From Nocardia miyunensis NBRC 108239 (GTDB taxonomy: Bacteria > Actinomycetota > Actinomycetes > Mycobacteriales > Mycobacteriaceae), in the NCBI RefSeq assembly GCF_001613065.1, contig NZ_BDBQ01000051.1, positions 104,429 through 128,428 on the forward strand: DNA of 24,000 nucleotides, read 5' to 3'. Position numbers and translations under genes: made by a program. Shown in pieces: positions 148 to 16,758 of this stretch. Under the pieces are notes generated by a model that was given only the letters and a program-made list of their open reading frames with translations, was not told where the DNA came from and did no database searches. Position 1 is the stretch's first letter, and each line of letters starts with the position of its first letter.

Positions 148-510
148 CTACCAACTCGATTTGTGCACACCGGGCAGCTCCCCGCGGTGGGCCAGCTCGC
201 GCACACGCACTCGGGAAAGGCCGAACTTCCGCAGATATCCACGTGGGCGGCCATCCGAAGCATCCCGATTGCGCAATCGTACCGGACTTGCATCGCGAGG
301 TAGCCGCTGCATTGCCGCGTAAAGCTCTACAGCTGTGCCTTTGGCCTCCGCATCGCCGCGGCGGATTCGCTGCCCCCGAGTCTCGCCGCGAACCGGCGAT
401 CCGGCGGCGGCGCGCCGGGCGGCCTCCTTCAGCTCGGCGCGCCGCTCGGCATTGCGGGCGACGACGGCCGCGCGCTGGGCGTTGCGGGCGATCTTGGACT
501 TCTTGGCCAT
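148..510 (-). CDS. rpsN: Ribosomal protein S14, long Cys-less (C-) form
   Basis: Starts [10 protein letters not shown] and ends ...[44 protein letters not shown], a typical S14 signature. It has no CxxC zinc motif. Its ATG overlaps the rpmG stop (TAATG at 508-512). Confidence 0.9.
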
Positions 511-674
511 TACCTGTCCTCCCGGAAGTCGACGTGCTCGCGCAGGACCGGATCGTATTTGCGCAGCACCATCCGGTCCGGATCGTTACGGCGGTTCTTT
601 CGGGTGATGTAGGTGTAGCCCGTGCCCGCGGTGGAGCGCAGTTTGATCTTGGGGCGAATCTCGTTGCGGGCCAT
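510..674 (-). CDS. rpmG: Ribosomal protein L33, Cys-less (C-) form
   Basis: 54 aa: [54 protein letters not shown], a classic L33 with no Cys. The ATG at 674-672 overlaps the rpmB stop. The long 510..1385 track ORF is an upstream extension that I reject. Confidence 0.9.
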
Positions 675-910
675 CAGATCCGCACACCCTCGCGCCGGAG
701 CCGCGCGACGGTCGCCTCGATGCCGTCGCGATCGATGGTCTTGATGCCCTTCGCCGAGACGGTCAGCGTGATGCGGCGGTCCTCGCTGGGCAGGTAGTAG
801 GTCTTGCGCTGGATGTTGGGGTTCCAGCGGCGGTTGGTGCGCATGTGTGAATGCGAGACGGTCTTGCCGAATCCGGGCCGGCGCCCGGTGACCTGGCAGT
901 GTGCCGACAC
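674..910 (-). CDS. rpmB: Ribosomal protein L28 paralogue
   Basis: [66 protein letters not shown] matches the L28 family. I place the start at GTG 910, preceded by AGGAGG (reverse complement of 915-920), rather than at the track ATG 946. Confidence 0.9.
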
Positions 911-927
911 GGTGATCCTCCTGAAGA

Positions 928-942
928 TGACAATCATTTTCG
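928..942. promoter_or_regulatory. Zur-box-like palindrome (proximal to rpmB)
   Basis: TGACAATCATTTTCG fits the 7-1-7 actinobacterial Zur box TGAAAAT-N-ATTTTCA with 2 deviations. It lies 18 nt upstream of the rpmB GTG, in the divergent spacer. Confidence 0.7.
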
Positions 943-982
943 ACATTGGACATCGAACACTGTAGCGTGGGCGGCCAGTAAA

Positions 983-997
983 TGAAAATCATTGTCG
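983..997. promoter_or_regulatory. Zur-box-like palindrome (proximal to the COG0523-like gene)
   Basis: TGAAAATCATTGTCG is a second 7-1-7 match, 55 nt from the first box. It overlaps the TTG at 992 and lies just upstream of the GTG at 1010. Confidence 0.7.
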
Positions 998-1009
998 AAA
1001 GGGGTTCCG

Positions 1010-2362
1010 GTGGCCTCACCTCCCGAGCGCCGCACACCCGTGGTGCTACTGGCCGACGCGTCCAACGAAACCGAACCGGGCGCACCCGTGGGCGCGGGTC
1101 TGGCCCGCATCGCCCGCGCGATGCTGGACACACCGGGCACGGTGGTGATCCGCCACGATCTGACCGCCCTGCACGAGGGCATCGTGCATAGGACGGTGTG
1201 GTACGGCACCCCGATCGGCCGGGACGTCGCGAATCCCGCCGTCGATCACCACGCGGTGACGACCGTGCACGAACTCGCGCACGGCTGCGTCTCGTGCACG
1301 CTGCGCGCCGATCTGCTGCCGCTGCTGTGTCTGCTGGCCACGCGAGATTCGGTGCGGCGCATCGTGATCGCGCTGGATCCCGCATTCGAGGCCGAGGCGG
1401 TCTGTCATGCCATCGAGCATGTTCCGGTGGCCGGTGTGGCCGGCCGCGTCGACGGGCCCGCCGGTCGCAGCGTGCGGATCGAGGCCGTGGTCACCGGTCT
1501 GGACGCGCGGACCTGGCTGGCCGACGCTGTCGGTGCGGAGACCCTCGCCGAACGCGGCCGCCGGGCCGATGACGAGCGCACCGTGGCGCAGGTCGCGGTG
1601 GGACAGGTCGAATTCGCCGATGCCGTCCTGGTTTTCGGCGGGCAGGCGGTGACCGGTGCGGAACGCGCGCGCCTGACCGCGATCCTGGATCGGCTGATTC
1701 CGCGCGCCCCGGTCGATTGGGCGCACGGTTCGACGATCGAGGATCAGGTGCGGATCGAGCGCCTGCTCGACCGCGTCGCGGCCGATTCGCGTCGCGGCCG
1801 GATCTTCGACGCGCACGCGCCGCTGTTGCGCCGCCGACCCCCGCTGCACACCGAATTCGGTGTCACCCTGGTCGAATTCGCCGCCGGACGCCCGTTCCAT
1901 CCGGCCCGGCTGCACGACGCGCTGGACGTGTTGTTCGAGGGTGTGGTCACCGCGCGGGGCAGGGTGTGGCTGGCGACCCAGCCCGACGAGGTGGTGTGGC
2001 TCGAGTCCGCGGGCGGCGGGTTGCGGGTCGGGAGCGCGGGGCCGTGGCTGGCCGTGCTGCCGCCCGAGGATGCCGCCGCGGCCGATCCGGATCGCCGCGC
2101 CCTGGCCGCGATGCGCTGGGACGAGCACTTCGGGGATCGTGACGTCTCGCTGACCGTCCTGGTCTGCGACGCCGATCCGGACGAGATCCGGCACGCGCTG
2201 CACTGGGCCCTGGTCGACGATGCCGAACTGCGTCTGGTGCGCACCGCGCCCGAGGTCGTCGCGCAGTGGGACGACCCGTTCGGCGACTGGCATGAAGACC
2301 CCTGTGAGACAAACGAATCCACCGCGACTCAGGGCGCGCAGGACGGGAGGGCAGATCGGTGA
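1010..2362 (+). CDS. COG0523/CobW-like putative metallochaperone with degenerate GTPase motifs
   Basis: [20 protein letters not shown] occupies the position of the COG0523 GCxCC motif. A CobW_C-like segment follows ([48 protein letters not shown]). No GK[ST] Walker A occurs anywhere in the protein. Start is either GTG 1010 (GAAAGGGG upstream) or TTG 992 (track); I prefer 1010 because 992 lies inside the Zur box. The stop overlaps the rpmE start (GTGA at 2359-2362). Confidence 0.8.
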
Positions 2363-3154: not shown

Positions 3155-3547
3155 TCACGCATGTTCCGAGTTGCCGCGGCCGAGCGCCTCGTGCACCAGC
3201 GATTCCAATCGCGCGACCTGTTCGGCCAGCGCTGTCAGCGGCGCCTCCGCCAGCGACAGCGGCCACGGGAGCCGCGGTTGTGACAGGTTTCGCACCTGTT
3301 CCTCGAGTTCGGCGATCGTAGCCTCCAGATCGCCCACCTCGGTGCGTAGTTCGGAGATCTGCGTCAATGCGGCGGCCACGGCGTCCACCAGCGATCGGTG
3401 CCGACCGTCTTCGTCGGTGCCCAGCTGTGGCCATCCGGCCAGGTCGGGGCCGCGCAGCTGGGTCTGGATATCGCGGAGAACGGCCAGGTGGTCCGGGAGT
3501 GCCTGCGACGCGTCGGTCTCCTCGGCGTCATCCGGGCGGGATTGCAT
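3155..3547 (-). CDS. Hypothetical acidic coiled-coil protein (130 aa)
   Basis: MQSRPDDAEETD...LTQISELRTEVGDLEATIAELEEQVRNL...ALAEQVARLESLVHEALG shows heptad-like Leu/Glu periodicity and high GC3, whereas the opposite-strand ORF is Ser/Cys/Arg junk. I place the start at ATG 3547. TACAGT (reverse complement of 3554-3559) lies 6 nt upstream, which fits a leaderless mRNA with a TANNNT -10. No family was recognised. Confidence 0.55.
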   Translation of the reverse strand: MQSRPDDAEETDASQALPDHLAVLRDIQTQLRGPDLAGWPQLGTDEDGRHRSLVDAVAAALTQISELRTEVGDLEATIAELEEQVRNLSQPRLPWPLSLAEAPLTALAEQVARLESLVHEALGRGNSEHA

Positions 3548-3654
3548 GGGGCCACTGTAATTCGCCGTGTGCGCGCGGCGCTCGGCATCGGATGTGCCGC
3601 TGCCGAATCGGGCGCGTGCGGGCGGTGGTTGTCTGAATTTGCAGTCTCGTAACA

Positions 3655-3709
3655 CGATTGCGGTAATTTTGCCGAGTTATTTACGGGCAAAGTTACCGCC
3701 TCGTAATCG
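3655..3709. repeat. Long imperfect inverted repeat/hairpin in an AT-rich intergenic island
   Basis: GCGGTAATTTTGCC (3660-3673) pairs with GGCAAAGTTACCGC (3686-3699). That is 14 bp with one T/G position (a G-U wobble only in a plus-strand RNA) and a 12-nt loop. The outer arms CGATT (3655-3659) and AATCG (3705-3709) extend the stem across a 5-nt bulge. Confidence 0.5.
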
Positions 3710-3889
3710 GTGCGGGCGAGGCTCTGTCTGGGCCACATTCCACGGGCCCGCGCCCCCGGATTCCGGGTGTGTGCAGGCTGAAATACCAGGGCCGCAGCGG
3801 TTTCGAGGAACCCCGCGCCCGACGAATCCGGGTCGGATCGCCTACTGCCGGGGGCGGTCCGACCCGATTCGTATGTCCGTGCGGTCCGC

Positions 3890-4717
3890 TCAGCCGACCG
3901 GCTCGGACGTGCGGGCGGTCTCGGTTCTGCGGTTCTGTCCCTGGATGCGGCGCTGGCGCGGGCCCTTGGGCACCCGCTTGGTGCGCGATTCGGGCTGCAA
4001 CCGCCCGGTGCGGTCCGGTGCGACCAGAACCGCGGTGATCGGGACCGCGAGCGACATCGTGGCGACGACGAAGATCGGGATGAACATGGTGAACAGATCC
4101 CGCCCGGCGGGCTGCGGCATGGCCGGATCGATGCGCACCGTCAGCCCGGACAGGCCGAGATAGAGGATTCCGATGACCGCGCCCGCGTACACCACGGACG
4201 CCCCGACCAGGGCCGTCGTCACGTGCACCCGCGTCGTCCAGAGCAGTGCGGCGACGAGCACAACCAGCAGAACGGTGCATCCGGCGATGATCGCGGGACT
4301 GATCGTGGTCGTGCCCTGTACCGCCAGGGAGCTCAGGCCAAGGTAATTCATCAGCCCCAGGCACAGTCCCGCGACGAGCGCGCCGATGCCCAACCGGACG
4401 GGCTTGCGATCGTCGCCCGCGATGATCAGTCCGGCCAGCACGCCGACCGGCGCCACCACGAGCGCGGCGACGCGCTGCATCAGGTCGTAGCGGACCACCC
4501 CGGTGGGCAGCCCGACGCCCAGCATCGTCACCGACATCGCGACCTGCGTCCCGATCGTGCCGATGCACACGGCCGCCGCGGTCAGCCACACGAGCCGGAA
4601 TTTGGCGGTCACCGACAGCGTCGACTGCCGGATACAGATCAGGCCGACCAGAGTGCCCGCCCACGCCACACCGAGCGCCAGCACGAGCACCCAGGTCCCC
4701 ATGGTGAAGTACTGCAC
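3890..4717 (-). CDS. Polytopic (about 7-TM) membrane protein with three degenerate MHYT-like repeats and a basic C-terminal tail
   Basis: I read seven hydrophobic segments. Alternate helices carry related motifs: GTIGTQVAMSVTMLGV, GLCLGLMNYLGLSSL and GAVIGILYLGLSGL. The first is followed by VRYD, as in MHYT domains (GxWxMHFxGM...YD), but the His is missing in all three repeats. GTG 4717 is preceded by CAGGGGG at 7-nt spacing. It lies 48 nt downstream of cvnD on the same strand. Confidence 0.75.
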   Translation of the reverse strand: MQYFTMGTWVLVLALGVAWAGTLVGLICIRQSTLSVTAKFRLVWLTAAAVCIGTIGTQVAMSVTMLGVGLPTGVVRYDLMQRVAALVVAPVGVLAGLIIAGDDRKPVRLGIGALVAGLCLGLMNYLGLSSLAVQGTTTISPAIIAGCTVLLVVLVAALLWTTRVHVTTALVGASVVYAGAVIGILYLGLSGLTVRIDPAMPQPAGRDLFTMFIPIFVVATMSLAVPITAVLVAPDRTGRLQPESRTKRVPKGPRQRRIQGQNRRTETARTSEPVG

Positions 4718-4765
4718 GCAAAAACCCCCTGTCCGGGTCGTATCAGATCTCGGTGGTACAGCCGC

Positions 4766-5377
4766 TCATCGGTGCGCTGGATCGCGGGCGGGCGGTTCGG
4801 TCAGACGCGCGATGGCGTATTCGGTTACCGCTGCCAGTGATTGGCGCACCTGGACCGGATCGCGGGCGTCGATGTCGACGATGGGCACGCCCTCGCGGAT
4901 CGACAGCGCCTCGCGCAGTTCGGTCGCCGGGAACCGGGGAGAATCGGGAAAACGGTTGACCGCCACCAGGAATGGCAGCTGCCGCGCCTCGAAGAAGTCG
5001 ACCACGGCGAAACTGTCCTCGATCCGGCGGGTGTCCAGCAGCACCACCGCGCCGATCGCGCCCCGGACCAGGTCGTCCCACATGAACCAGAATCGGCGCT
5101 GGCCCGGGGTGCCGAACAGGTACAGGGTCAGATTGCCCGGCAGGATGATGCGGCCGAAATCCATGGCGACCGTGGTGGTCTCCTTGCCGGGCGTGGCCGA
5201 CAGATCATCCACGCCGTCGGAGTAGCCGGTCACCATGGCTTCGGTGCGCAGCGGCACGATCTCCGAGACCGCGCCGACGAAGGTGGTCTTGCCCGCGCCG
5301 AAACCACCGGCCACCACGATCTTCGTGGAGGCGGTGCGGGTTTCGGCGTCCGAGACGTCAGAGAGCGCGGAGTCCAC
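4766..5377 (-). CDS. cvnD: Conservon GTPase CvnD (MglA/Ras-like ATP/GTP-binding protein)
   Basis: TKIVVAGGFGAGKTTFVGAVSEI (P-loop), LFGTPGQRRF (switch II) and VAVNRFPD (NKxD-like). I place the start at GTG 5377 (VDSALSDVSD...), preceded by GGAGAGG. It overlaps the end of cvnC by 20 nt. Confidence 0.85.
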   Translation of the reverse strand: MDSALSDVSDAETRTASTKIVVAGGFGAGKTTFVGAVSEIVPLRTEAMVTGYSDGVDDLSATPGKETTTVAMDFGRIILPGNLTLYLFGTPGQRRFWFMWDDLVRGAIGAVVLLDTRRIEDSFAVVDFFEARQLPFLVAVNRFPDSPRFPATELREALSIREGVPIVDIDARDPVQVRQSLAAVTEYAIARLTEPPARDPAHR

Positions 5378-5735
5378 GCAGGGTCCTCTCCATGAGCGAG
5401 CGGCGCTCATCGTACGTGGCGTTTTCACTGAGCGTGGTGTGCACCCGCAGCGTACCGGCGACGACCAGATCGCCGATGACGACGCGGACCATACCCAGCG
5501 GCCGTTGCAAGTGGGCGGCGATCTCCGCGACCGACAGCCTGCCACCGCCACCACCGAGGCGCAGGATATCGGTACGGACATCGCCTGCGGGCCAATCGAA
5601 TCGGCTCGCGTACGGCAGGGTCTCCACGACTGCCTCCAACGGTAGGTCGACCGCGGGCTGGGTGCGCCCGGCGGTCAGCGCGTAGGGGCGGACGCGTGTT
5701 GTCGGCCGGGGATCGGCTCCGAAGGAACTCGACAT
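5358..5735 (-). CDS. cvnC: Conservon protein CvnC (DUF742 family)
   Basis: VRPYALTAGRTQP...LSVAEIAAHLQRPLGMVRVVIGDLVVAGTLRVH is a typical DUF742 pattern, and the gene sits between the Roadblock and GTPase genes. Confidence 0.85.
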   Translation of the reverse strand: MSSSFGADPRPTTRVRPYALTAGRTQPAVDLPLEAVVETLPYASRFDWPAGDVRTDILRLGGGGGRLSVAEIAAHLQRPLGMVRVVIGDLVVAGTLRVHTTLSENATYDERRSLMERTLRGLRAL

Positions 5736-5742
5736 GGAACCG

Positions 5743-6153
5743 TCAGACCGACGAACGGGCAGTGGCCTGAACGACCGCTCCGACCCGATCGGACAATAGC
5801 GCCATCTCGTAGCCGATGCGGCCGATATCGTGCTGCTTGTTGGCCAGCACTGCCAGATGCGAGCCGTTGCCGACGCTCATCACCAGCAGATAGCCGCGTT
5901 GCATGTCCACGATCGACTGCATCACCTTGCCGCCCTCGAACAGCTGGGCGGCCCCCGAGGACAGACTGGCCAGTCCGGCGGTCACCGCGGACAGCTGCTC
6001 GGCGCGATCCGCGGGCAGGTGCGGACTGGTGGCCTGCAACAGGCCGTCGGCCGATACCAGCACCGCGTGCGAGACGCCGGGGACCTCGCGCGTGAAGCGC
6101 GTCACCAGCCAGTTGAGATTCTCGTCGGTGGGGGGCTGCTCGGTATCGGTCAT
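5743..6153 (-). CDS. cvnB: Conservon protein CvnB (Roadblock/LC7 domain)
   Basis: [29 protein letters not shown]...[24 protein letters not shown]...[21 protein letters not shown] 6153 overlaps the cvnA stop (ATGA at 6150-6153). The track ORF 5743..6594 is over-extended. Confidence 0.9.
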
Positions 6154-9100
6154 ACGTGTCCTCCATCGTTGTGCTGCGCGTCGTGTTGTTCGAGCCCGCC
6201 GCCGGACCGATTTCCGTTGTACCCGTTTTCGTCCCCGTACGACGTGAGGCCCGCGCGTCCACTGCGTACACCGCTGAGGTGCCGGGACAGATTGCTGCGG
6301 ATTTCCTCGGGATCGGGGGCGCCGGTGTCGGCGGGTGGAGTCAAGCCGCCCGGGACGAGCTGAGCGCCCGGGTTGCGAATGGGAAGTCCACCGGAGGTCC
6401 GGTGGTCCATGGTCGGTTTGCTGGCTTCTTCGGCCGCGGCCCAGCCCGCGTCGGCGGGGGAGGACCAGGCGCCGCCGGGTTCGCTCGCCGAGGGCTCGAC
6501 CAGCCACTCCGAGACCATGCGCTGGTAGATGGGCGATTCGGCGGGTTCGAGGGCGCCGGGCTGCTGGACCGGCAGCGTCGCGGTCTGCGCCCACAGGTCC
6601 GCTGGCTCGGAATCCCAGGACGGGGTGCGGGCCGGTTCGGGGGGCGCGGGGGCCGGGGTGTTGCCGGGCATCGGCGGGAATTCACCCGACGGCCAGGGCT
6701 CGGCCGCGGGGCGCCGGCGTCGGGGGCGCAGGATCTGCTCACCGCCGGGTCCGGATCCGGTCGTCGAGTTCGGTGTCCGGGACGTGGAATCCAAACTGCC
6801 CCAGGCCTGTTCGGTCGCGGCAGGCTGCTCGGGGCGCGTGTCGGCCCAGAACTGTTGTGCCGGTTCGGATCCGGTCTCTTCCCAGCGCACCGCGCCGGAC
6901 CACGCGTCGCCGCTCCGCCAGCGGGCGATGTCCGGGCCCTGCTGGTACTGCGGTTCTTCGGCATCCCAATCCTGCTGCGCCGGAACCGATTCCGGTGAAT
7001 ACCAACTCGATGCGGAGTTCGACCAGTCCTGCACCACCGGTTCGTCGTCGTCCTCGTCCCGGTCCGGCTGTGACAATACCGACCGGTCGGGGACGGCCCA
7101 GGGGTCTCGGGCGGTCTCGCCCGCATGGGCGAACGGATTCGGTTCCTCGTCCTGCGGCTGATAGCCGATCACGTTGTCGGAGACCGGCTCCGGGTCTTGG
7201 CGGGAGACGAACAGACCGGTGGGTCCGTCGTCGGGGGCCGGCTCGGGATCGTGCTGGGAGACGAACAATCCGGTGGGCTCGTCGGCGCCGGACGAGGACT
7301 CCGCGGCGGATTCGGAATCCCCGCGCGCCGGGCGGCGCTGCGGCAGCGGGGTCACCGAGGAACCGAACAGCGGCACCGGAGCCGGGATGTCCTCGGGCGC
7401 GGCATGGGCCGGTGTCGAGGTCGGCGTGGCGGGCAGCGGTGCGCCCGGGAATTCGCCGGACTCCGGCTTGTCGGAGGTGATCAGGGATTTCGGCAGATGG
7501 ACCGTGGCGGTGATGCCCGGCTGCTGCGCCATCGTGGAGGTGCGGCGCAGGCTGACGGTGACCGTATGGCGCTTGGCGAGCCTGCCGACCACGTAAAGGC
7601 CCATGCGGCGGGCGGTTTCGACGGTCACCTCACCGCCGGAGGCCAGCCGGTCGTTGATCTCGCGCAGATCGTCACCGGACATGCCCAGGCCGCGGTCGGT
7701 GATCTCGATCAGATAGCCGCCCTCGGGCGCCGCGGACACCGACACCGCGACCGGTGTGCTCGGCGGCGAGTAGCGCAGCGAGTTGTCGATCAGCTCGGCC
7801 AGCAGATGTTCGATGTCGACCGCGGGCTCACCGGCGACGACGCCGTCGGGCACCGCGCCGATCTCCACGCGCTGATAGTCCTCCACCTGGGAGACCGCAC
7901 TCCAGAGCATGTCCGAGAGCGGCACCGGGGGCAATTGGCCGCGGCGCAACGCGGTTCCGGCCAGCACCAGCAGGTTGTCGCCGTTGCGGCGCATGCGGGT
8001 GGCCAGGTGGTCCAGGCGGAACAGGCTCTGCAGCCGCCCCGGATTCTCCTCGTCGCGTTCGAGATCCTCGATCAGCGTCAACTGCTGCTCGACGAGGGAT
8101 TGGCTACGCCGCGAAAGGGTTTCGAACATGCTGCTGATCAGCAGTCGCAGGCGGGCCTGATCGGCGGCCAGGTGCAACGCCTGGCGGTGCATGTCGTCGA
8201 CCGCGCGGGCCAGCTGGCCGATCTCCTCGGTGGTCTGCACGTCGACCGGGAGGATCTCGGGGGTCGCGCCGCCGTCGCGCACCACCGACAGCTCGGCGGG
8301 CAGGTCCACGTGGGCGACCTGCAGCGCGCCGCGCCGCAGCCGCCGCACCGGCACGACCAGGGAGCGCGCCACCGCAAGCGCCAGCGCCAGGCCCGCGAGC
8401 ATGGTCAGGACCACGGACGCGACGTCACGAAGCACGGTGCTGCGCGCATCGATCGAGGTGCGGCTCAGACCCGAGGTGATCAGGTCGGCCACGTGGTTGA
8501 TCGCCTCGGAATAGGTGGTGGCGCTGCGCCGCAGCGAATCGTCCACCCCGGCTATCGTCCTGGGCTCGGCCGAGTTCTGGCTCAGCGCGCGCAACCGGGT
8601 CTGCTGGGCGTCCAGCAGGATATCCGGCTTGTACGCCGAGGTCGGCTGGACCACGGCGTACTGGTTGATCATGGTGAGTTCGGAACCGGTCGCGGTGAGC
8701 GCCTGCGCCATCATCGCCGGATTGTTGCTGATCTCGCCGCTGCCGATGATGAGCTGCTGTTGCAGGAACATCCGGCGCGCGATGGTGAGATCGCCGAGCT
8801 GGGTGTAATACCGCTCGAGCGTCGTCTCCTTGGGCGTGATGAGCGTGGTGACGGCGTTGCTGATGTGGGTGGCCACCTCGTCGGCCTCGGTGCCGAGCAC
8901 CTGGGCCGAACTGCCGTGCAGGCTGTTGCGCATCCCGCGTCCGGTGGACAGCGCGTCGGTGATCTCGGTGCTCACCTGCTGGTCGACCCGCGCCAGCGGC
9001 AGTGCCGACTGGAGGTTGGCCGCGGTCTGGTCGAAGCGCGCGGAGACCTGGTCCAGCGTCGCCTGCCCGAGGCGGTCGCCGGTGCCCGCGGCGACCGCGA

Positions 9101-9317
9101 GATCATCTGCGGCGGAACCGAAGTCGAGCAGCGGGCGAATGATCTGCGCCTGCTGGGTCGCGACGTTCAGTTGCGAGATGGTGCCCAGTTCGCCCCGGAT
9201 TCGCAGGACGGCGAAGACCGAGGCCAGCACGACGGGCAGGAGCAGCACGATGCCGACCTTGCTCGTCACCGAGAGGTTGGACAGATTTTGCTGCCATGGT
9301 CGCGGTGCAGTTCCCAT
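6150..9317 (-). CDS. cvnA: Conservon sensor histidine-kinase-like protein CvnA with a roughly 450-aa disordered Pro/Glu/Asp/Trp-rich tail
   Basis: It has an N-terminal TM helix ([16 protein letters not shown]), a long helical sensor region, a second TM helix plus a HAMP-like segment ([26 protein letters not shown]), and HATPase_c motifs ([30 protein letters not shown]). A low-complexity tail follows. Confidence 0.9.
7186..7293 (-). repeat. Two copies of a 54-bp in-frame tandem repeat inside the cvnA tail
   Basis: Units 7186-7239 and 7240-7293 are about 70% identical by my hand alignment. They encode [16 protein letters not shown] and [16 protein letters not shown]. Confidence 0.7.
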
Positions 9318-9721
9318 CCCGCTTCCGTCGCCTCCGCTCGCGCATTCGCCCTGGGGGTCCCACCGCGGCCGGTTCCCGGCTCACAGCCTCACCTCGCAGG
9401 TGCTCGGCCGCGCTGTGCCGAAGGCACTGTATCTTCGGCCAGCTCTCGAGCCCCCTCGCGGGCCTACGCAGATCCGCTGGCGCTCGAATTTGCGCAATGT
9501 GAACTGACGTTCTTCGGGTCCAACCGCCGGAGAACCGACTGTAGGTCTTCTTTTACGGCACGCAACATACCGCGTGAACTTGGCCACGGCAATTCGGACT
9601 TCCCTGCTCTGAAATCGCTAATTTCCCCACGCACAAGGTGTTTCATACGCTCGTATCCGCGCGAGCGAGTAAAGCGACTGGTCACCGGCTCGCGGTGAAC
9701 CGGCGTGTCGAACGGGGGGCT

Positions 9722-9738
9722 TCTCAGTGGACTCTCAG
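9722..9738 (+). promoter_or_regulatory. MprA-box-like direct repeat upstream of mprA
   Basis: TCTCAG-TGGAC-TCTCAG, with an 11-bp period, ends 24 nt upstream of the mprA ATG. The same architecture recurs upstream of pepD (12115-12131). Confidence 0.6.
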
Positions 9739-9761
9739 TCGGTGCGTTCAGACTGGACCAC

Positions 9762-10454
9762 ATGCGCATTCTGGTAGTCGACGACGACCGCGCGGTGCGG
9801 GAATCGCTGCGGCGGTCGCTGACGTTCAACGGCTACTCCGTCGAACTGGCGGTCGACGGGCTCGACGCTCTCGACCAGGTGGCCGCGCAGCGGCCCGACG
9901 CGCTGGTACTGGACGTCATGATGCCGCGGCTGGACGGCCTCGAGGTCTGCCGCCGACTGCGCAGCACCGGTGACGACCTGCCCATACTCGTTCTCACCGC
10001 ACGGGATTCGGTGTCCGAGCGGGTCGCGGGACTGGACGCCGGCGCCGACGACTACCTCCCCAAACCCTTCGCCCTCGAGGAGTTGCTGGCGCGGCTGCGC
10101 GCGCTGCTGCGGCGCACCTCGGCCGATCCGGCGGGCGCCGCCGAATCCGAGACGATGACGTTCGCGGATCTGTCGCTGGACCCGATCACCCGCGAGGTGT
10201 CCCGGGGCGATCGCGCCATCAGCCTCACCCGCACCGAGTTCGCACTGCTGGAAATGTTGATGGCCAATCCGCGCCGGGTACTCACCCGCAGCCGCATTCT
10301 CGAGGAGGTCTGGGGCTACGACTTTCCCACCTCCGGCAATGCCCTCGAGGTGTACATCGGCTATCTGCGGCGCAAGACCGAGGCCGAGGGCGAGCCCCGG
10401 CTGATCCACACCGTGCGCGGCGTCGGCTACGTGCTGCGCGAGACCCCGCCGTAG
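9762..10454 (+). CDS. mprA: OmpR-family response regulator MprA
   Basis: [30 protein letters not shown]...[17 protein letters not shown]...[34 protein letters not shown]...[16 protein letters not shown] is near-collinear with M. tuberculosis MprA as I remember it. I prefer ATG 9762 to the track GTG 9705, because the upstream 57 nt have low GC3 and contain the repeat box. Confidence 0.9.
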
Positions 10455-10456
10455 GA

Positions 10457-11977
10457 GTGGGCGTCATCGTGGGAAGGCATGTTCCGCGTTCGACCGCACG
10501 GGGTTCGGGCGGGCGCGGACGGGATGCGAACGGGCGTGGCCGCGACGTCGTGGCCGGACTGCGCCCGCGCACCGACACGCACGATCTGCGTCCGCCGATG
10601 CCGCTGACGCGCTCGGTGTCGCTGCGCTGGCGGGTGACGTTGCTGGCGGCCTCGGTCGTGGCGATCGCCGTGGCGGTCACCTCGATCGCCGCCTACGCGG
10701 TGGTGGCGCGCGCGCTGAATGCCGATCTCGACCAACAACTTCGGACCCGGGCGACCGGCATGATCGACCAGCGCCTGGACGCGCTGGACTATCAGGAGGT
10801 ACTGCAACTCGGCGCGCTGTACTCCAACGACGTGTCCATCGCGCTGAACTATCCCGGCAGCGATCAGTGGGTTTCGTTGTCCCGCAACTCCGATTCGCCG
10901 ATCGGGGCGCCCGAGGTCGCGGTCGCGCACGGCCGGTCCTCGTTCTCCCTGCGCACCAGCCGGAATCAGCGAGTGCTCGCCGAACATATGGAATCCGGTG
11001 CGACGCTGGTGATCTGGCAGTCCCTGGAACCGACCCAGGAGGTGCTCGACCGGCTGGCCCTGCTGCTGTTCGTGGTCGGCGGCTGCGGCGTCGTGGTGGC
11101 CGCGGCAGCGGGAGCCGCGGTGGGCCGCACGGGATTACGGCCGGTGGCGCGGTTGACCGCGGCCGCCGAACGAGTCGCGCGCACCGACGATCTGGCCGCC
11201 ATCCCGGTCACCGGCGACGACGAATTGGCCCGTCTCACCGAGAGTTTCAACACTATGCTGGTCGCCCTCGGCGAGTCGCGCGAGCGACAGCGGCGACTGG
11301 TCGCCGACGCCGGGCACGAGCTGCGCACGCCGCTGACCTCGCTGCGCACCAATATGGAACTGCTGATCGCCTCCTCCCGTCCCGGCGCGCCCCGGATTCC
11401 CGAGGACGACATGGCCGAGCTGCGCGCGGACGTGGTGGCCCAGATCGAGGAGCTGTCCACCCTGGTCGGCGACCTGGTGGATCTGGCCCGCGAGGACGCC
11501 CCGGAGGACGTCTACGAGCGGGTGGACGTCGGCGCGGTGACCGAGCGCGCGCTCGAGCGGGCGCGCCGCCGCCGCGCCGGGGTGGAATTCGTCGCCGAGC
11601 TGTGCCCCTGGTTCGTCTACGGCGACGAGGCCGGACTCGAACGAGCCGTGCTGAACGTCCTGGACAACGCGGCGAAATGGAGTCCGGCCGGAGATCAGGT
11701 GCACGTCACGATGGCCGAGACCGGGCCCGGACTCATGGAGATCACCGTCGACGACGCCGGACCGGGCATTCCGCCCGAGGAACGCCGCCTGGTCTTCGAA
11801 CGCTTCTATCGGACCACGGCCGCCCGGTCCATGCCCGGTTCGGGCCTCGGCCTGGCCATCGTGCAGCAGGTGGTGACCAAACACGGTGGGACGATCACCA
11901 TCGAGACCTCCGAACGCGGCGGTGCACTGGTCCGGATCGTATTGCCCGGCGAGAATGCCGTACCGCCGGTGCAATAG
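10457..11977 (+). CDS. mprB: Sensor histidine kinase MprB
   Basis: SVSLRWRVTLLAASVVAIAV (TM1), a HAMP segment (GLRPVARLTAAAERVARTDDL...ELARLTESFNTML), an H-box (DAGHELRTPLTSLRTN), an N-box (VLDNAAKWSP) and G-boxes (DDAGPGIP, GSGLGLAIVQQVV). The start is uncertain: GTG 10457 lies 2 nt after the mprA stop, and the alternatives are GTG 10469 and ATG 10598. Confidence 0.85.
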   Translation: MGVIVGRHVPRSTARGSGGRGRDANGRGRDVVAGLRPRTDTHDLRPPMPLTRSVSLRWRVTLLAASVVAIAVAVTSIAAYAVVARALNADLDQQLRTRATGMIDQRLDALDYQEVLQLGALYSNDVSIALNYPGSDQWVSLSRNSDSPIGAPEVAVAHGRSSFSLRTSRNQRVLAEHMESGATLVIWQSLEPTQEVLDRLALLLFVVGGCGVVVAAAAGAAVGRTGLRPVARLTAAAERVARTDDLAAIPVTGDDELARLTESFNTMLVALGESRERQRRLVADAGHELRTPLTSLRTNMELLIASSRPGAPRIPEDDMAELRADVVAQIEELSTLVGDLVDLAREDAPEDVYERVDVGAVTERALERARRRRAGVEFVAELCPWFVYGDEAGLERAVLNVLDNAAKWSPAGDQVHVTMAETGPGLMEITVDDAGPGIPPEERRLVFERFYRTTAARSMPGSGLGLAIVQQVVTKHGGTITIETSERGGALVRIVLPGENAVPPVQ

Positions 11978-12131: not shown

Positions 12132-12176
12132 TCGATGTCATCAGTCTGGTCGGCAGACGTGAGGAGAAACGAGAAG

Positions 12177-14084
12177 ATGACCGAGGACCCGAAGGACAAC
12201 CGGGAACAGCCGCAGTCGTCGGCCGACTCGGAGTTGCGGGCGCAGACGCCCGATGCACAGCCGGCCGAACAGCAGTCACCCGATCCCGGTCGATCGGCGG
12301 GGTCCGCGCCCCAGGATCAGCCCGCTCAGCAGTCCGCGTCCCAGCCGGGGACGCAGGGCTCGGGCGCGCCGCAGTCGCCCTATGCGCCGCCCGCCTCCGC
12401 ACAGTCGCCGCTCGGGCAGGCACAGGGCGGGACGGAGTCGCCGTTCGGCCGGACGACGTTCGGCCAGCCGGGAGCGCAGGAGTCCGCCTCCCAGGGGTCG
12501 GCCGTGCCGCGGGCGCCGTTCACGCAGTCCGGCTCGTCGGAGTCGCCGTTCGGGCAGGCGTTGCCGGGCGGGTCGGAGTCGCCGTACGCCTCGTCGCAGT
12601 CGCCCTACGGCCAGTCCGGGGCGCCGGAATCGCCGTTCGGGCAGACCGCCTTCGGGCAGCAACCGTCGCCGTTCACCCAGCCGCCCTCCCCGTACTCGCA
12701 GTCCGGGCCGCAGCAGCCGGTCACGGGTCAGTTCCCGGCGACCGGCTCGGGTTCGGCGCCGGCGGGGTATTCGCCGTGGGCGTCCCGGGAGACGCCGACC
12801 CAGCACACCACCCCGATGCCGCCGTATCCGCACGCCTACGGCTCCGGTGGCGGGCAGCAACCGCCGACCGGTCCCTTGCCCACCGCCGCGGGCTCGCCCT
12901 TCGGTTCCGAGCACAGCACCGCCGCCTATGCGAGCGCGCCCTATGCGACTGCCGCGCCGCAGCGTCGCGGCCGGGCCGGACTGGTCGTCGGGGCGATCGT
13001 GCTGGCGCTGGTCGCGGGTGGCGTCGGTGGGGCGATCGGCGCGCTGGTGGCCGATTCGGGCGGCGGGTCCTCGGTCACCAATGCGCTGGACAACTCCTCG
13101 CCGAACGCGAATCCCGCCTCGGTCACCGCGCCCGCGGGATCGGTGCAGGCCGTTGCGCAGAAGGTCGTGCCGAGCGTCGTGATGATCAAGGTGGCCGGTG
13201 ATCGTGCCGAGGGCGAGGGCTCCGGGGTCATCCTGTCCTCCAACGGGCTGATCCTGACCAACAACCACGTCGCCAGCGGCGCCGGACCGGGCGCGAAGAT
13301 GCAGGTGCAGTTCAAGGACGGCAGCACCAGTTCCGCCTCGGTCGTCGGCGTCGACCCGATCTCGGATCTGGCGGTCATCAAGGCGGAGAACAAGTCCGGT
13401 CTGACGCCGATCGACCTGGGCACCTCCAAGACGCTCCAGGTGGGCCAGCCGGTCGTCGCGATCGGATCCCCGCTGGGCTTGGCCGGAACGGTCACCACCG
13501 GCATAGTCTCGGCGCTCAATCGCCCGGTGTCCACCAGCGGTGAGTCCGGTTCGACCGGCACCGTGATCTCCGCCGTGCAGACCGACGCGCCGATCAACCC
13601 GGGCAACTCCGGCGGCGCGCTGGTCGATATGAGCGGCAAACTGATCGGTATCAACACCGCGATCGCGACGCTGGGCGGCAGTTCGGACAGCAGCCAGCAG
13701 AGCGGCTCGATCGGCCTGGGCTTCGCGATCCCGGTCGATCAGGTGCGCCGGGTGGCCAACGAGCTGACCAAGACCGGCCACGCGACCTACGCCCAGATCG
13801 GCATGACCGTGCTGAATCAGGCGCCGAGCAACGTCAACGCCAACGGCGCGGTGGTCAAGGACGTCGCCGCCGACGGCCCGGCAGGCAAGGCGGGCATCCC
13901 GCCGGGCGTGGTGGTGACCAAACTCGATGATCTGGTGATCGACAACGGTGACGCGCTGGTCGCCGCGGTCCGCTCGCATCAGCCGGGCGACAAGGTCTCG
14001 CTGACCTACACCGACACCAACGGACAGAACGCGAAGACGGTCCAGGTGACCCTCGCCGGAGCCGCCGCGGACGGTGCCCATTGA
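12177..14084 (+). CDS. pepD: HtrA/PepD-family membrane serine protease (trypsin-like domain plus PDZ) with a long low-complexity N-terminus
   Basis: Catalytic triad context: TNNHV (His), DLAVIK (Asp) and GNSGGALV (Ser). A PDZ-like C-terminus follows (GAVVKDVAADGPAGKAGIPPGVVVTKLDD). There is one TM helix (LVVGAIVLALVAGGVGGAIGALVA). I prefer ATG 12177, which is preceded by GAGGAG, to the track ATG 12135. Confidence 0.9.
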   Translation: MTEDPKDNREQPQSSADSELRAQTPDAQPAEQQSPDPGRSAGSAPQDQPAQQSASQPGTQGSGAPQSPYAPPASAQSPLGQAQGGTESPFGRTTFGQPGAQESASQGSAVPRAPFTQSGSSESPFGQALPGGSESPYASSQSPYGQSGAPESPFGQTAFGQQPSPFTQPPSPYSQSGPQQPVTGQFPATGSGSAPAGYSPWASRETPTQHTTPMPPYPHAYGSGGGQQPPTGPLPTAAGSPFGSEHSTAAYASAPYATAAPQRRGRAGLVVGAIVLALVAGGVGGAIGALVADSGGGSSVTNALDNSSPNANPASVTAPAGSVQAVAQKVVPSVVMIKVAGDRAEGEGSGVILSSNGLILTNNHVASGAGPGAKMQVQFKDGSTSSASVVGVDPISDLAVIKAENKSGLTPIDLGTSKTLQVGQPVVAIGSPLGLAGTVTTGIVSALNRPVSTSGESGSTGTVISAVQTDAPINPGNSGGALVDMSGKLIGINTAIATLGGSSDSSQQSGSIGLGFAIPVDQVRRVANELTKTGHATYAQIGMTVLNQAPSNVNANGAVVKDVAADGPAGKAGIPPGVVVTKLDDLVIDNGDALVAAVRSHQPGDKVSLTYTDTNGQNAKTVQVTLAGAAADGAH

Positions 14085-15024: not shown

Positions 15025-15262
15025 AGATGTTTACATGAACATACGTTGTCAGCCTCTCGTCAGTGCGTTTAATGTTCGCCTTTGGGCTATACCACAGCGG
15101 CTCTTTTGGGCCCGGGAACGGCGTCTCGGCGTCGACCCCGGCGGAACGTAGCCCGGTTCCGACAGGTTGGTCTGGCGGTAGCGCGACCCATGTCGCCGGT
15201 TAGGCGGCGGCAACATGCTGGCGAATAGACTGAGCTGGGCCCGGTAATGGGCCGCGTTTCCA

Positions 15263-15308
15263 ACCCCGGTGGTCGGGGTCGGAAATCAGCCTCGGTGGTC
15301 GAGGCTGA
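15263..15308 (+). promoter_or_regulatory. Two adjacent hairpins with identical GTGGT loops in the porin leader
   Basis: Hairpin 1 is ACCCCG-GTGGT-CGGGGT (15263-15279). Hairpin 2 is TCAGCCTCG-GTGGT-CGAGGCTGA (15286-15308). The second ends 25 nt before the porin ATG, and the core CGGTGGTCG is repeated 26 nt apart. Confidence 0.35.
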
Positions 15309-15333
15309 CTGCTATAACCTGATGAGGGGAAAT

Positions 15334-16011
15334 ATGAGCGAGAACCGCACCAGCGGTGCGCGTCGCGGTGCCCGTTTCGCGGGTATCGGGGCGGCGGCAG
15401 CCGTTGCGATCGGATTGCTATCGACCGGCGCTGCCAACGCCGACACTTTCGTGCCGTTGCCGGACGGCCACAGACTGGGTGCCGATGGTGTTTCCATCAC
15501 CCGCACCCATGAGCACGCCACCATTTCGACATCCTTGGCAGCCAACGGTGCCGGCCGTACTGTCTGGGTGTCGGGTATCGCGGCCGCGGATGTTCCGCAC
15601 GCACCGATCACCACGGTGGGCCCGAACAACGGCCAGTTGAACAATCCTGGCACCAACAATTCGTCGACACACGGCGCGTCGCAGCTCAATTCGGGCTACA
15701 TCATCGGCTGCCAGGTCGACATCGGCTCGGACGCCATCTCCGCCGGAGTCTCCGGCAGTGTCAGCCTGACCGATGCGTCACTCGGTGGATCGATCGGCTT
15801 GAACCTCGGCCCCGGCCAGGTCAAGTTCGTACAGATCGACTCGATCGACATCACGCACCCCGGCCACTACTCGGTGGAATACCAGGACGCGGAGATGCAG
15901 ATCCAGGGTTGCGCGGGTTACGCACAGGCTCGTGCGTACACCGTTGTCGAAGTTGTCGGCAACAACTACTCGAAGACCACCCTGTACGGGCAGCCCTTCA
16001 GCATCGGCTGA
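15334..16011 (+). CDS. MspA-family porin paralogue 1 (secreted, signal peptide)
   Basis: The signal peptide ends in AANA|DTFVPLP. The mature part shows the MspA-like blocks GYIIGCQVDI, LNLGPGQVKFVQI, IQGCAGYAQARAYTVVEV and TLYGQPFSIG at the C-terminus. ATG 15334 is preceded by GAGGGGA. Confidence 0.8.
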   Translation: MSENRTSGARRGARFAGIGAAAAVAIGLLSTGAANADTFVPLPDGHRLGADGVSITRTHEHATISTSLAANGAGRTVWVSGIAAADVPHAPITTVGPNNGQLNNPGTNNSSTHGASQLNSGYIIGCQVDIGSDAISAGVSGSVSLTDASLGGSIGLNLGPGQVKFVQIDSIDITHPGHYSVEYQDAEMQIQGCAGYAQARAYTVVEVVGNNYSKTTLYGQPFSIG

Positions 16012-16077
16012 CGTGCGTGGTCTCCAAGCGCCAACTCTATTCTCGCGCATAGCGATTCACCCATGAGGGAACTAAAC

Positions 16078-16758
16078 ATGAACATCCGTAAGACTCTGGC
16101 ACGCGCGGCCGGCGTCGGTGCTGTGACCACCGCCGCTCTAGGTCTGTTCTCGACAGGCGCCGCGAACGCCGATACCTTCGTCCCGCTGCCCGGTGGCAGC
16201 ATCACCCGCACCCTGACCGATGGCACCTCCGTCCACGTATGGATCGATGGCGAGTCGGCGAACATCAACCCGTCGATGGGTTCGACTCCGCTGCACCGCA
16301 ACGCGTGGGCCTCGGCCACCGCGCATGTGCACATCTCCGGTAAGACGACCGCCACGGGCGGCCACATCTATCCGGGATACGTCGTCGGCTGCCAGGTGAA
16401 CATCTCCGGCGGCGGCGCCAGTGCGTCGCCGAGTGCCGGTGCCAGCTGGGACAGCAGCGGCAATGTCACGCCCAGCGCCTCGGTGGGCACCAGTGGCAAC
16501 CTGACCCTCGGCCCCGGCCAGGCGCAGGCCTTCTACGTCCTGGACCTGGAGAAGAAGGACGACTTCGGTGGGGATGCCCACAAGACCTACACGCCGTTCA
16601 CCGGTAACGACGGCTCGGTCGCGTGGGCGGACGAGACCATCGGTCTGACCGGCTGCGCCGGTTACGCGCAGGCGCGTTCGTTCGTCAGCGTCGAGGTCTC
16701 CACCGACAGTGTCATCAGCTGGGTGACATTGTGGGGTAAGCCCTTCAGCCTCGGCTGA
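16078..16758 (+). CDS. MspA-family porin paralogue 2 (secreted, signal peptide)
   Basis: MNIRKTLARAAGVGAVTTAALGLFSTGAANA|DTFVPLPGG, then GYVVGCQVNI, LTLGPGQAQAFYV, LTGCAGYAQARSFVSVEV and TLWGKPFSLG. ATG 16078 is preceded by GAGGGAA. It lies 66 nt after paralogue 1. Confidence 0.8.
   Translation: MNIRKTLARAAGVGAVTTAALGLFSTGAANADTFVPLPGGSITRTLTDGTSVHVWIDGESANINPSMGSTPLHRNAWASATAHVHISGKTTATGGHIYPGYVVGCQVNISGGGASASPSAGASWDSSGNVTPSASVGTSGNLTLGPGQAQAFYVLDLEKKDDFGGDAHKTYTPFTGNDGSVAWADETIGLTGCAGYAQARSFVSVEVSTDSVISWVTLWGKPFSLG

Follow-up and report, generated by a model that had tools for sequence, protein, structure and literature searches.

A conservon of Nocardia miyunensis extended by a fifth gene for a degenerate MHYT-like membrane protein

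Introduction

Conservons, the G protein systems of actinobacteria, are encoded by the gene series cvnABCD. CvnA-type proteins are membrane histidine kinase-like sensors; CvnB (MfpD in mycobacteria) is the GTPase-activating protein (GAP) of the GTPase CvnD (MfpB), and CvnC (MfpC) serves as that GTPase's nucleotide exchange factor (guanine nucleotide exchange factor, GEF). To our knowledge, conservons are widespread in actinobacteria, and their inputs are essentially unknown. The subject of this article is a conservon in a 24,000-nt stretch of the genome of Nocardia miyunensis NBRC 108239 (contig NZ_BDBQ01000051.1, forward-strand positions 104,429 to 128,428; hereafter the window, numbered from its first letter), in which cvnABCD is followed by a fifth gene for a protein with seven predicted transmembrane (TM) helices that is related to the MHYT family. 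The MHYT domain (PF03707), as Galperin is said to have described it in 2001, has six TM helices arranged as three two-helix repeats, plus a seventh TM helix, and reportedly carries a Met-His-Tyr motif near the outer face of the membrane in three of them.

Surveys from 2026 recognise only two types of conservon accessory, CvnE (a cytochrome P450) and CvnF (a GAF protein), to which the literature adds MfpA. The accessory CvnF8 binds and stimulates CvnA8, and accessory proteins accompany CvnA proteins that lack an extracytoplasmic sensory (NIT) domain (PMC13343842). In mycobacteria, mfpA is the fifth gene of the mfp operon (PMC9769811). The gene has been reported only in Mycobacteriaceae (PMC13015309), and the GTP-bound form of MfpB binds MfpA (PMC4316618). 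MHYT domains are described as sensors of gases (CO, O2 or NO) that work through copper bound by Met, His and Tyr; copper-dependent sensing has been shown only for CoxC, with carbon monoxide (CO) as the gas (PMC11347149).

In a full-text search, MHYT and conservon or mfp terms occurred together in no paper; subscription-only literature lay outside its scope, so a prior mention is possible. As far as this search reaches, the pairing is undescribed, as the initial annotation of the locus had supposed. The comparisons presented below suggest that an MHYT-fold membrane protein, here in degenerate form, represents a previously unlisted class of conservon accessory.

The conservon and its fifth gene

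Five co-directional genes occupy positions 3890-9317 on the minus strand of the window, and Pfam gives the first four in the defining conservon order. The first, cvnA (mfpE-type; 6150-9317), encodes a histidine kinase-like membrane protein of 1055 aa with HAMP and HATPase_c domains. It is followed by cvnB (mfpD-type; 5743-6153; 136 aa; Robl_LC7, 2e-23), for the presumed GAP of CvnD; cvnC (mfpC-type; 5358-5735; 125 aa; DUF742, 7e-28), for the presumed GEF; and cvnD (mfpB-type; 4766-5377; 203 aa; ATP_bind_1, 4e-26), which has a GTG start and encodes a small Ras-like GTPase. The fifth gene (3890-4717) encodes a 275-aa protein with a predicted seven-TM (7-TM) MHYT fold that lacks the motif His residues. 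The protein is identical to WP_067672247.1 of N. miyunensis, which carries the NCBI label 'hypothetical protein'.

Gene order and tight packing identify cvnABCD as a conservon, that is, an actinobacterial G protein system. The cvnA stop and the cvnB start share ATGA at 6153-6150, with GGAGGA upstream; the cvnB stop (TGA, 5745-5743) is followed after a 7-nt gap by the cvnC start (ATG, 5735). The cvnD start (GTG, 5377), with GGAGAGG upstream, overlaps the cvnC stop (TGA, 5360-5358) by 20 nt, and the same 20-nt overlap is found in the gene calls of relatives. Between the cvnD stop (TGA, 4768-4766) and the start of the fifth gene (GTG, 4717) there are 48 nt. All four junctions had been listed in the initial annotation, and all were confirmed on the sequence.

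The type of the conservon was assessed through CvnB. Against M. tuberculosis MfpD (Rv3364c, PDB 9hef), the window CvnB shows 65% identity (165 bits); against S. coelicolor CvnB5 it shows 37% (80 bits). In the other loci where an MHYT gene follows cvnD, the identity of CvnB to MfpD is 64-76%, reaching 76% for the CvnB of a Rhodococcus block located between gyrB and gyrA; in two loci of a different gene order, L140 and L143, it is 47-54%. Compared through CvnB alone, the window conservon is of the mfp type and an orthologue of Rv3365c-Rv3362c. Given the 65% identity of CvnB to MfpD, the MHYT gene holds the operon position of mfpA, a slot taken in Nocardiaceae by an MHYT-fold membrane protein. 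A pentapeptide-repeat match was absent from a Pfam scan of 10 of the larger open reading frames (ORFs) of the window.

In CvnA, TM1 and TM2 enclose an extracytoplasmic stretch of about 250 aa that is helical throughout; HAMP, HATPase_c and a tail of about 435 aa (aa 621-1055, window 6150-7457) follow. The tail is of low complexity, is rich in Pro, Ala, Ser, Gly, Glu and Asp, and makes up much of the length and divergence of the protein. At aa 978 it contains LPIR, so that the LPxR motif known to be conserved in the C-terminal extension of CvnA (Wuichet & Sogaard-Andersen 2014; PMC4316618) is present. Pfam gives no NIT match in the window CvnA, and hhalign detected no similarity between the Nocardia CvnA N-terminal profile and a NIT-type CvnA; in CvnA homologues, the N-terminal extracytoplasmic region is PF26990 (DUF8316). 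A single-sequence AlphaFold2 prediction of CvnA residues 1-361 was too poor (pLDDT 54) to show more than an all-helical region.

An MHYT-fold protein without the family motif

Taken alone, the fifth protein has a single Pfam match, to MHYT, which covers one repeat and, at 17.3 bits, stays under the cut-off of 21. Profile comparison settles the homology to MHYT. PF03707 matches 23 of 27 orthologues at E <= 0.01, and most orthologues are annotated as MHYT proteins. A Nocardia family profile (A1) aligns end to end with a profile of canonical stand-alone MHYT proteins (A3), with an hhalign probability of 100% and an E value of 4.9e-62 over 249 columns. Word-indexed homologue searches gave almost only Nocardia, and other genera were reached by an exhaustive HMMER search with the Nocardia family profile, which found 5389 proteins. 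The non-Nocardia matches listed are mostly 250-400 aa long, with LMHFIAM / AMHYTGM / GMHYTGM.

AlphaFold2 with the family alignment (pLDDT 78.5, pTM 0.71) predicts seven helices in the membrane and a tail that is disordered from residue 233; each of the three outer loops holds a short beta element. A Foldseek comparison of this model with the PDB returned nothing significant (best E 0.07, TM-score ~0.24); the top matches are generic helical membrane proteins, including G protein-coupled receptors and rhodopsins, and no MHYT structure seems to have been solved. With the Pfam assignments of the core genes, the profile alignment and the seven predicted helices, the initial description of a conservon joined by a degenerate MHYT-like 7-TM protein is borne out. 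The threefold internal repeat that formed part of this description is supported by the 7-TM model and in part by sequence: hhalign relates repeat 2 to repeat 3 (P 7e-6) and, weakly, repeat 1 to repeat 2 (P 0.007), but it detects no similarity between repeats 1 and 3.

The three motifs of the window protein read AMSVTML at the outer end of TM2 (aa 60-66; 4520-4540, minus strand), LMNYLGL at the outer end of TM4 (aa 122-128; 4334-4354, minus strand) and GILYLGL at the outer end of TM6 (aa 183-189; 4151-4171, minus strand), with Met, Asn and Leu, respectively, at the His position. All three had been read as lacking the motif His in the initial annotation, and the profile-profile alignment does place them where canonical MHYT proteins have MH[FY]xGM. 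In total, none of the three His and two of the six Met remain. With three His and four Met of the motifs replaced, the canonical copper site, which CoxC requires to sense CO, cannot form. Judged by sequence comparison and structure prediction, the fifth protein is an MHYT protein by descent and fold, yet it is without the motif that defines the family.

Conservation among the orthologues is 0.76-0.93 in TM1, loop 1, TM2, TM7 and the APDR segment, and 0.49-0.56 in TM3-TM6, which hold motifs 2 and 3. The most conserved cytoplasmic element runs from the end of TM1 through loop 1 to the start of TM2 (CIRQSTLSVTAKFRLVWL; aa 28-45; 4583-4636, minus strand); its A1 columns are invariant or nearly so (conservation 0.76-0.81). 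At the cytoplasmic end of TM7 and in the juxtamembrane segment, PITAVLVAPDR (aa 226-236; 4010-4042, minus strand; conservation 0.93) is invariant in A1. It is a signature of the cvnD-adjacent subfamily, and APDR is also found in Rhodococcus M1 and in locus L089. Beyond it lies a disordered, Arg/Lys-rich C-terminal tail (aa 237-275; 3893-4009, minus strand; pLDDT ~50) with a conservation of 0.30. The long basic tail noted earlier is thus present in the window, where aa 233-275 hold 12 Lys/Arg against 4 Asp/Glu (net +8), but it is limited to the clade of the window; the tails of other orthologues measure 15-52 aa and are roughly neutral. Four loci considered as domain fusions (L029, L034, L051 and L076) were rejected as such, their true ends lying at ~255 aa.

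Conservation of the pairing with conservons

The arrangement in which mprB-mprA diverges from cvnABCD-MHYT is found in 80 of 80 Nocardia loci. Since these belong to a single genus, the linkage within Nocardia is weak evidence, and other genera were therefore examined. In the R. pyridinivorans/rhodochrous group, R. gordoniae (CP101467.1) and Rhodococcus sp. CH91, a complete mfp-type conservon and three MHYT genes lie between the gyrase genes in the order gyrB-cvnABCD-MHYTx3-gyrA, adjoining the origin region (L082, 695-13419; L172, L173 and L174, 1600-14423). The block forms part of the origin-proximal cluster recF-dciA-gyrB...gyrA-DUF3566. The start of its first MHYT gene overlaps the cvnD stop; this copy is degenerate, with only the third motif His (pattern --H). 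The second and third copies are canonical. In a related lineage, the MHYT genes number two.

Further cases come from loci with other flanks. In L084 and L089, cvnD and the MHYT gene overlap by 8 nt, and the downstream genes of L089 are unlike those of L084. Three metagenomic loci (L085, L093 and L094) have a canonical MHYT gene with all three motif His (HHH) 19-36 nt after cvnD, with ESX genes flanking one of them and a LuxR/methyltransferase pair another. The initial annotation had proposed a functional tie between the fifth protein and the Cvn switch, and had turned to the linkage of orthologues as a check; with the linkage preserved throughout Nocardia and in Rhodococcus and metagenomic lineages with different flanks, this tie is supported as far as sequence evidence reaches.

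In loci L140 (410-6319) and L143 (1243-7198) the order is different. Here, a canonical MHYT gene abuts the start of an NIT-type cvnA, giving MHYT-cvnA-cvnB-cvnC-cvnD, and a second cvnB-like segment follows cvnD. The conservon itself is a different paralogue, with a CvnD that is 54% identical. On these comparisons, L140 and L143 are a second, independent association of MHYT with a conservon. The neighbour-joining tree of the family was used for grouping only, as its midpoint root is distorted by the fast-evolving degenerate clades.

Graded loss of the motif histidines

Loss of the motif His is graded across the genus. None of the 80 Nocardia species has the full HHH pattern; 48 have lost the first His only (-HH), 26 keep only the third (--H) and 6 have none (---). 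Counted by motif, the His of motif 1 is present in 0 of 80 orthologues, that of motif 2 in 48 and that of motif 3 in 74. The four closest relatives of the window protein (83-86% identity) retain the motif 3 His, which indicates that its last His was lost recently. From this distribution, complete His loss is a recent, lineage-specific end state, and most Nocardia orthologues keep one or two. The His-less state arose separately in N. alni, in the N. cyriacigeorgica group and in L074, L084 and L089, and the genes are intact in all of them.

The reading frame of the fifth gene is intact in 80 of 80 Nocardia species. Measured against close relatives, dN/dS is 0.24-0.34 for the fifth gene, 0.18-0.25 for CvnA and 0-0.12 for CvnB, CvnC and CvnD. 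The fifth gene is thus the fastest-evolving member of the operon, and CvnD is almost invariant. Judged by these ratios, the fifth gene is under purifying selection.

Operon structure

The 48-nt spacer between cvnD and the fifth gene (4718-4765, minus strand) carries a ribosome-binding site, GGGGG, placed 7 nt ahead of the GTG. The spacer has no stable fold or hairpin (z +1.2) and no promoter-like or terminator-like match. A strong, terminator-like GC-rich hairpin follows the fifth gene (3823-3872, minus strand; -50 kcal/mol, z -3.05). A hairpin at the same position, with another stem sequence, is found in L001, L003, L004, L005 and L012. A sigma-70 promoter scan of 6.5 kb gave no match anywhere, a result that is uninformative for a high-GC actinomycete. 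From the sequence, cvnD and the fifth gene of the window are probably co-transcribed.

Among the 80 Nocardia loci, cvnD and the MHYT gene are separated by a median of 34 nt; the spacer is no longer than 60 nt in 66 and no longer than 20 nt in 29. The start/stop overlaps in Rhodococcus, L084 and L089 indicate translational coupling of cvnD and MHYT. In the closest relatives of the window (N. vaccinii, N. jiangxiensis, N. macrotermitis and N. albiluteola), the spacer is 124-314 nt long, with 241 nt in N. vaccinii; the relatives' spacers lie at 7757-8003 in L001, 7692-8003 in L003, 7874-8003 in L004 and 7684-8003 in L006. Only ~25 nt before the start codon are shared, which suggests a recent deletion or insertion that may have removed or added an internal promoter. 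The N. jiangxiensis spacer holds a short tandem repeat.

The fifth gene is flanked by two copies of a 13-nt direct repeat (TCCGGGTCGGATC / TCCGGGTCGTATC), at 3827-3839 and 4732-4744 of the window. The downstream hairpin has one of these copies as an arm; the second is located 15 nt ahead of the start codon. In a search with a related 12-mer, one mismatch being allowed, there were 2 matches against 0.35 expected; 5 of 100 shuffles equal this number, and the repeat may be due to chance.

Neighbouring genes

The divergent genes upstream of the operon are mprA (9705-10454) and mprB (10457-11977), followed by a gene for a pepD/HtrA-like protease (12135-14084, plus strand; 649 aa). The trypsin domain of the latter begins only at aa 346, so that the ORF has either a long N-terminal extension or a true start further downstream. 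Two tandem genes for MspA-family porins follow on the plus strand at 15247-16011 and 16063-16758 (Pfam MspA, 6e-25 and 8e-47).

Just downstream of the operon lies a 166-aa coiled-coil ORF with no Pfam match (3155-3655, minus strand). It matches the C-terminal part of a longer gene found in other Nocardia and in L089. The longer homologue starts with an Rv2525c-like, glycoside hydrolase-like domain (Rv3766_C region), and the window copy may be truncated at the N-terminus. Further on are a gene for ribosomal protein L31 (2359-2646, plus strand) and an L33-like 3' end within the ORF at 510-1385 (minus strand), possibly an alternative ribosomal protein cluster. In most Nocardia loci, the L31 gene is located within ~2-5 kb of the MHYT gene.

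Proposed role of the fifth protein

As it lacks an output domain, the MHYT protein must act through a partner. We propose that it represents a new class of accessory to mfp-type conservons, a membrane input or pseudo-sensor that modulates CvnA; the chances that this proposal is right or wrong appear about equal. The protein would be a stand-alone MHYT-fold 7-TM module, made together with CvnA-D, which would lie in the membrane beside the two-TM CvnA and modulate it by protein-protein contact. The candidate contact surface comprises the conserved TM1/loop 1/TM2 region and the TM7-APDR face. Via CvnA, the protein would bias the switch composed of CvnB (GAP), CvnC (GEF) and CvnD (GTPase). The canonical members found after cvnD in metagenomic loci presumably feed a copper-dependent gas or redox signal into the system. 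Nocardia lost the Met/His/Tyr ligands stepwise, with none of the three His left in N. miyunensis, and the window protein may be a ligand-independent co-receptor or scaffold (a pseudo-sensor), or may sense a non-canonical ligand.

CvnA is favoured as the partner because both are membrane proteins, their divergence is equal, their distances track each other best, and their genes are adjacent in L143. The mean p-distance is 0.46 for the MHYT core and 0.45 for the N-terminal sensor/TM part of CvnA, compared with 0.08-0.15 for the kinase part of CvnA and for CvnB, CvnC and CvnD. In a mirror-tree analysis, the partial correlation with MHYT is highest for CvnA (0.60, 0.59) and lowest for CvnD (0.29). 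The binding and stimulation of CvnA8 by CvnF8 offers a precedent. These pointers to CvnA are suggestive.

Several observations weigh against the proposal. Shared phylogeny and rate class confound the mirror-tree correlations, which are therefore weak evidence; the physical partner and the direction of signalling are inferred. The gene order after cvnD, the frequent coupling and the precedent of mfpA make CvnD at least as natural a partner. The rule that accessories go with sensor-less CvnA does not clearly apply, since the window CvnA keeps its extracytoplasmic region of ~250 aa, and the MHYT-linked CvnA of L143 even carries an NIT domain. In the closest relatives, the long spacers leave room for an independent promoter. 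Finally, most other stand-alone MHYT genes have no cvn neighbours. Unlinked copies are found on Rhodococcus plasmids, in Embleya, in L081 and in ~10 metagenomic loci whose upstream flank measures 3 kb or more, and a plasmid tblastn search with the fifth protein found only unlinked MHYT genes, those of the Rhodococcus plasmids and Embleya. Linkage therefore characterises certain MHYT clades, not the whole family.

The same gene order could mean that the 7-TM protein is an effector or membrane anchor. CvnD-GTP would dock on loop 1, the APDR face or the tail, as MfpB-GTP does on MfpA, and the protein would either localise the switch or relay its output. The position of the gene directly after cvnD, with overlaps in Rhodococcus, L084 and L089 and a spacer of at most 20 nt in 29 of 80 Nocardia, fits such a role, as do its place in the mfpA slot of an orthologous operon and the cytoplasmic location of the conserved residues. 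However, the covariation of distances is weakest for CvnD (0.29), CvnD is almost invariant whereas the MHYT protein evolves fastest, and in L140 and L143 the MHYT gene adjoins cvnA and is far from cvnD. The cytoplasmic surface is also small and the tail is not conserved. An effector or anchor is rather doubtful, although it has a real chance of being correct. The MHYT gene might also be a neighbour without any functional tie, a stand-alone sensor or unrelated protein kept beside cvnD by descent and perhaps co-transcribed as a passenger. Stand-alone MHYT genes do occur in many unrelated contexts, all cases downstream of cvnD may trace to one ancestral juxtaposition in the mfp-type lineage, and spacers of 124-314 nt would permit separate transcription in some species. 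This is improbable, given that the five-gene block is intact across at least four contexts (mprAB, gyrB/gyrA, ESX genes and the LuxR/methyltransferase pair), that a second, independent association exists with another conservon paralogue in a different order, and that start/stop overlaps indicate translational coupling.

Loss of the motif raises the question of whether the window copy is a decaying relic that became functionless on losing its three His and is on the way to a pseudogene. No His and only two of the six motif Met are left, the Pfam score is under the cut-off, its last His was lost so recently that the closest relatives retain it, and no gene of the operon evolves faster. Against this, a good ribosome-binding site precedes an intact frame, the dN/dS values of 0.24-0.34 are not ~1, the gene is also intact in N. 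alni, the N. cyriacigeorgica group, L074, L084 and L089, which are likewise His-less, and TM1, TM2, TM7 and APDR are strongly conserved in a protein with a confident structure prediction. Decay is very improbable. A more ambitious version of the input role would make the 7-TM protein the primary receptor of the mfp-type conservon, in direct connection with the cycle of the Ras-like GTPase (from receptor via GEF/GAP to G protein) as a bacterial analogue of 7-TM receptor/G protein signalling. It would ancestrally have been a copper-dependent gas or redox reporter tied to the control of DNA gyrase, with the His-less Nocardia proteins as pseudo-receptors locked in one state. The location of the module between gyrB and gyrA in the Rhodococcus clade fits this idea, as does the presence of the gyrase mimic gene mfpA in the same mycobacterial slot, but we regard it as unlikely.

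If an accessory that modulates CvnA is indeed what the fifth gene encodes, it would supply a candidate input (redox state, copper, a diatomic gas, or else a signal from the membrane) for a conservon that is orthologous to the clinically relevant mfp system. The linked homologues would form a natural series from fully liganded to ligand-less, which would help to separate sensing from scaffolding. Stand-alone MHYT proteins without an output domain would gain a candidate downstream pathway. As an mfp-type module sits between gyrB and gyrA in Rhodococcus, and its mycobacterial orthologue controls the gyrase-binding MfpA, there is also a hint that the link between conservons and gyrase is perhaps older than mfpA.

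Comparison with known systems

Like the MHYT sensors CoxC of Afipia carboxidovorans and NbdA and MucR of Pseudomonas aeruginosa, and like stand-alone MHYT proteins, the fifth protein has the 7-TM fold with three two-TM repeats, as predicted, and it retains the outer-loop RYD, VQG and DP elements. Unlike CoxC, NbdA and MucR, it has no fused output domain and is encoded inside a G protein operon. Its state resembles that of degenerate GGDEF/EAL pseudo-sensor and pseudo-enzyme partners, in which the scaffold and the partner surface are kept and the ligand or catalytic residues are lost; this likeness is an analogy only, and we know of no pseudo-sensor case with an MHYT domain.

Conservons with CvnF (GAF) or CvnE (P450), such as Cvn8/CvnF8 of S. 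coelicolor, likewise have an accessory gene after cvnABCD, for a sensor-type domain without an output domain of its own, and a CvnA without a Pfam NIT domain. The Nocardia accessory differs from CvnE and CvnF in being an integral membrane protein that is neither GAF nor P450; Pfam and NCBIfam gave no P450 or GAF match in the fifth protein. The window CvnA, unlike that of these conservons, retains a large extracytoplasmic domain. Since the fifth protein has almost no cytoplasmic mass, CvnF8-like binding at the HATPase/DHp domains is unlikely.

A further parallel is the mfpEDCBA operon of Mycobacterium, which has four core genes orthologous to those described here and likewise consists of five co-directional genes, the last of which comes right after that of the GTPase. 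The fifth proteins are of different kinds: that of Mycobacterium, MfpA, is a soluble gyrase mimic with pentapeptide repeats, while that of Nocardia is a membrane protein with a predicted 7-TM MHYT fold.

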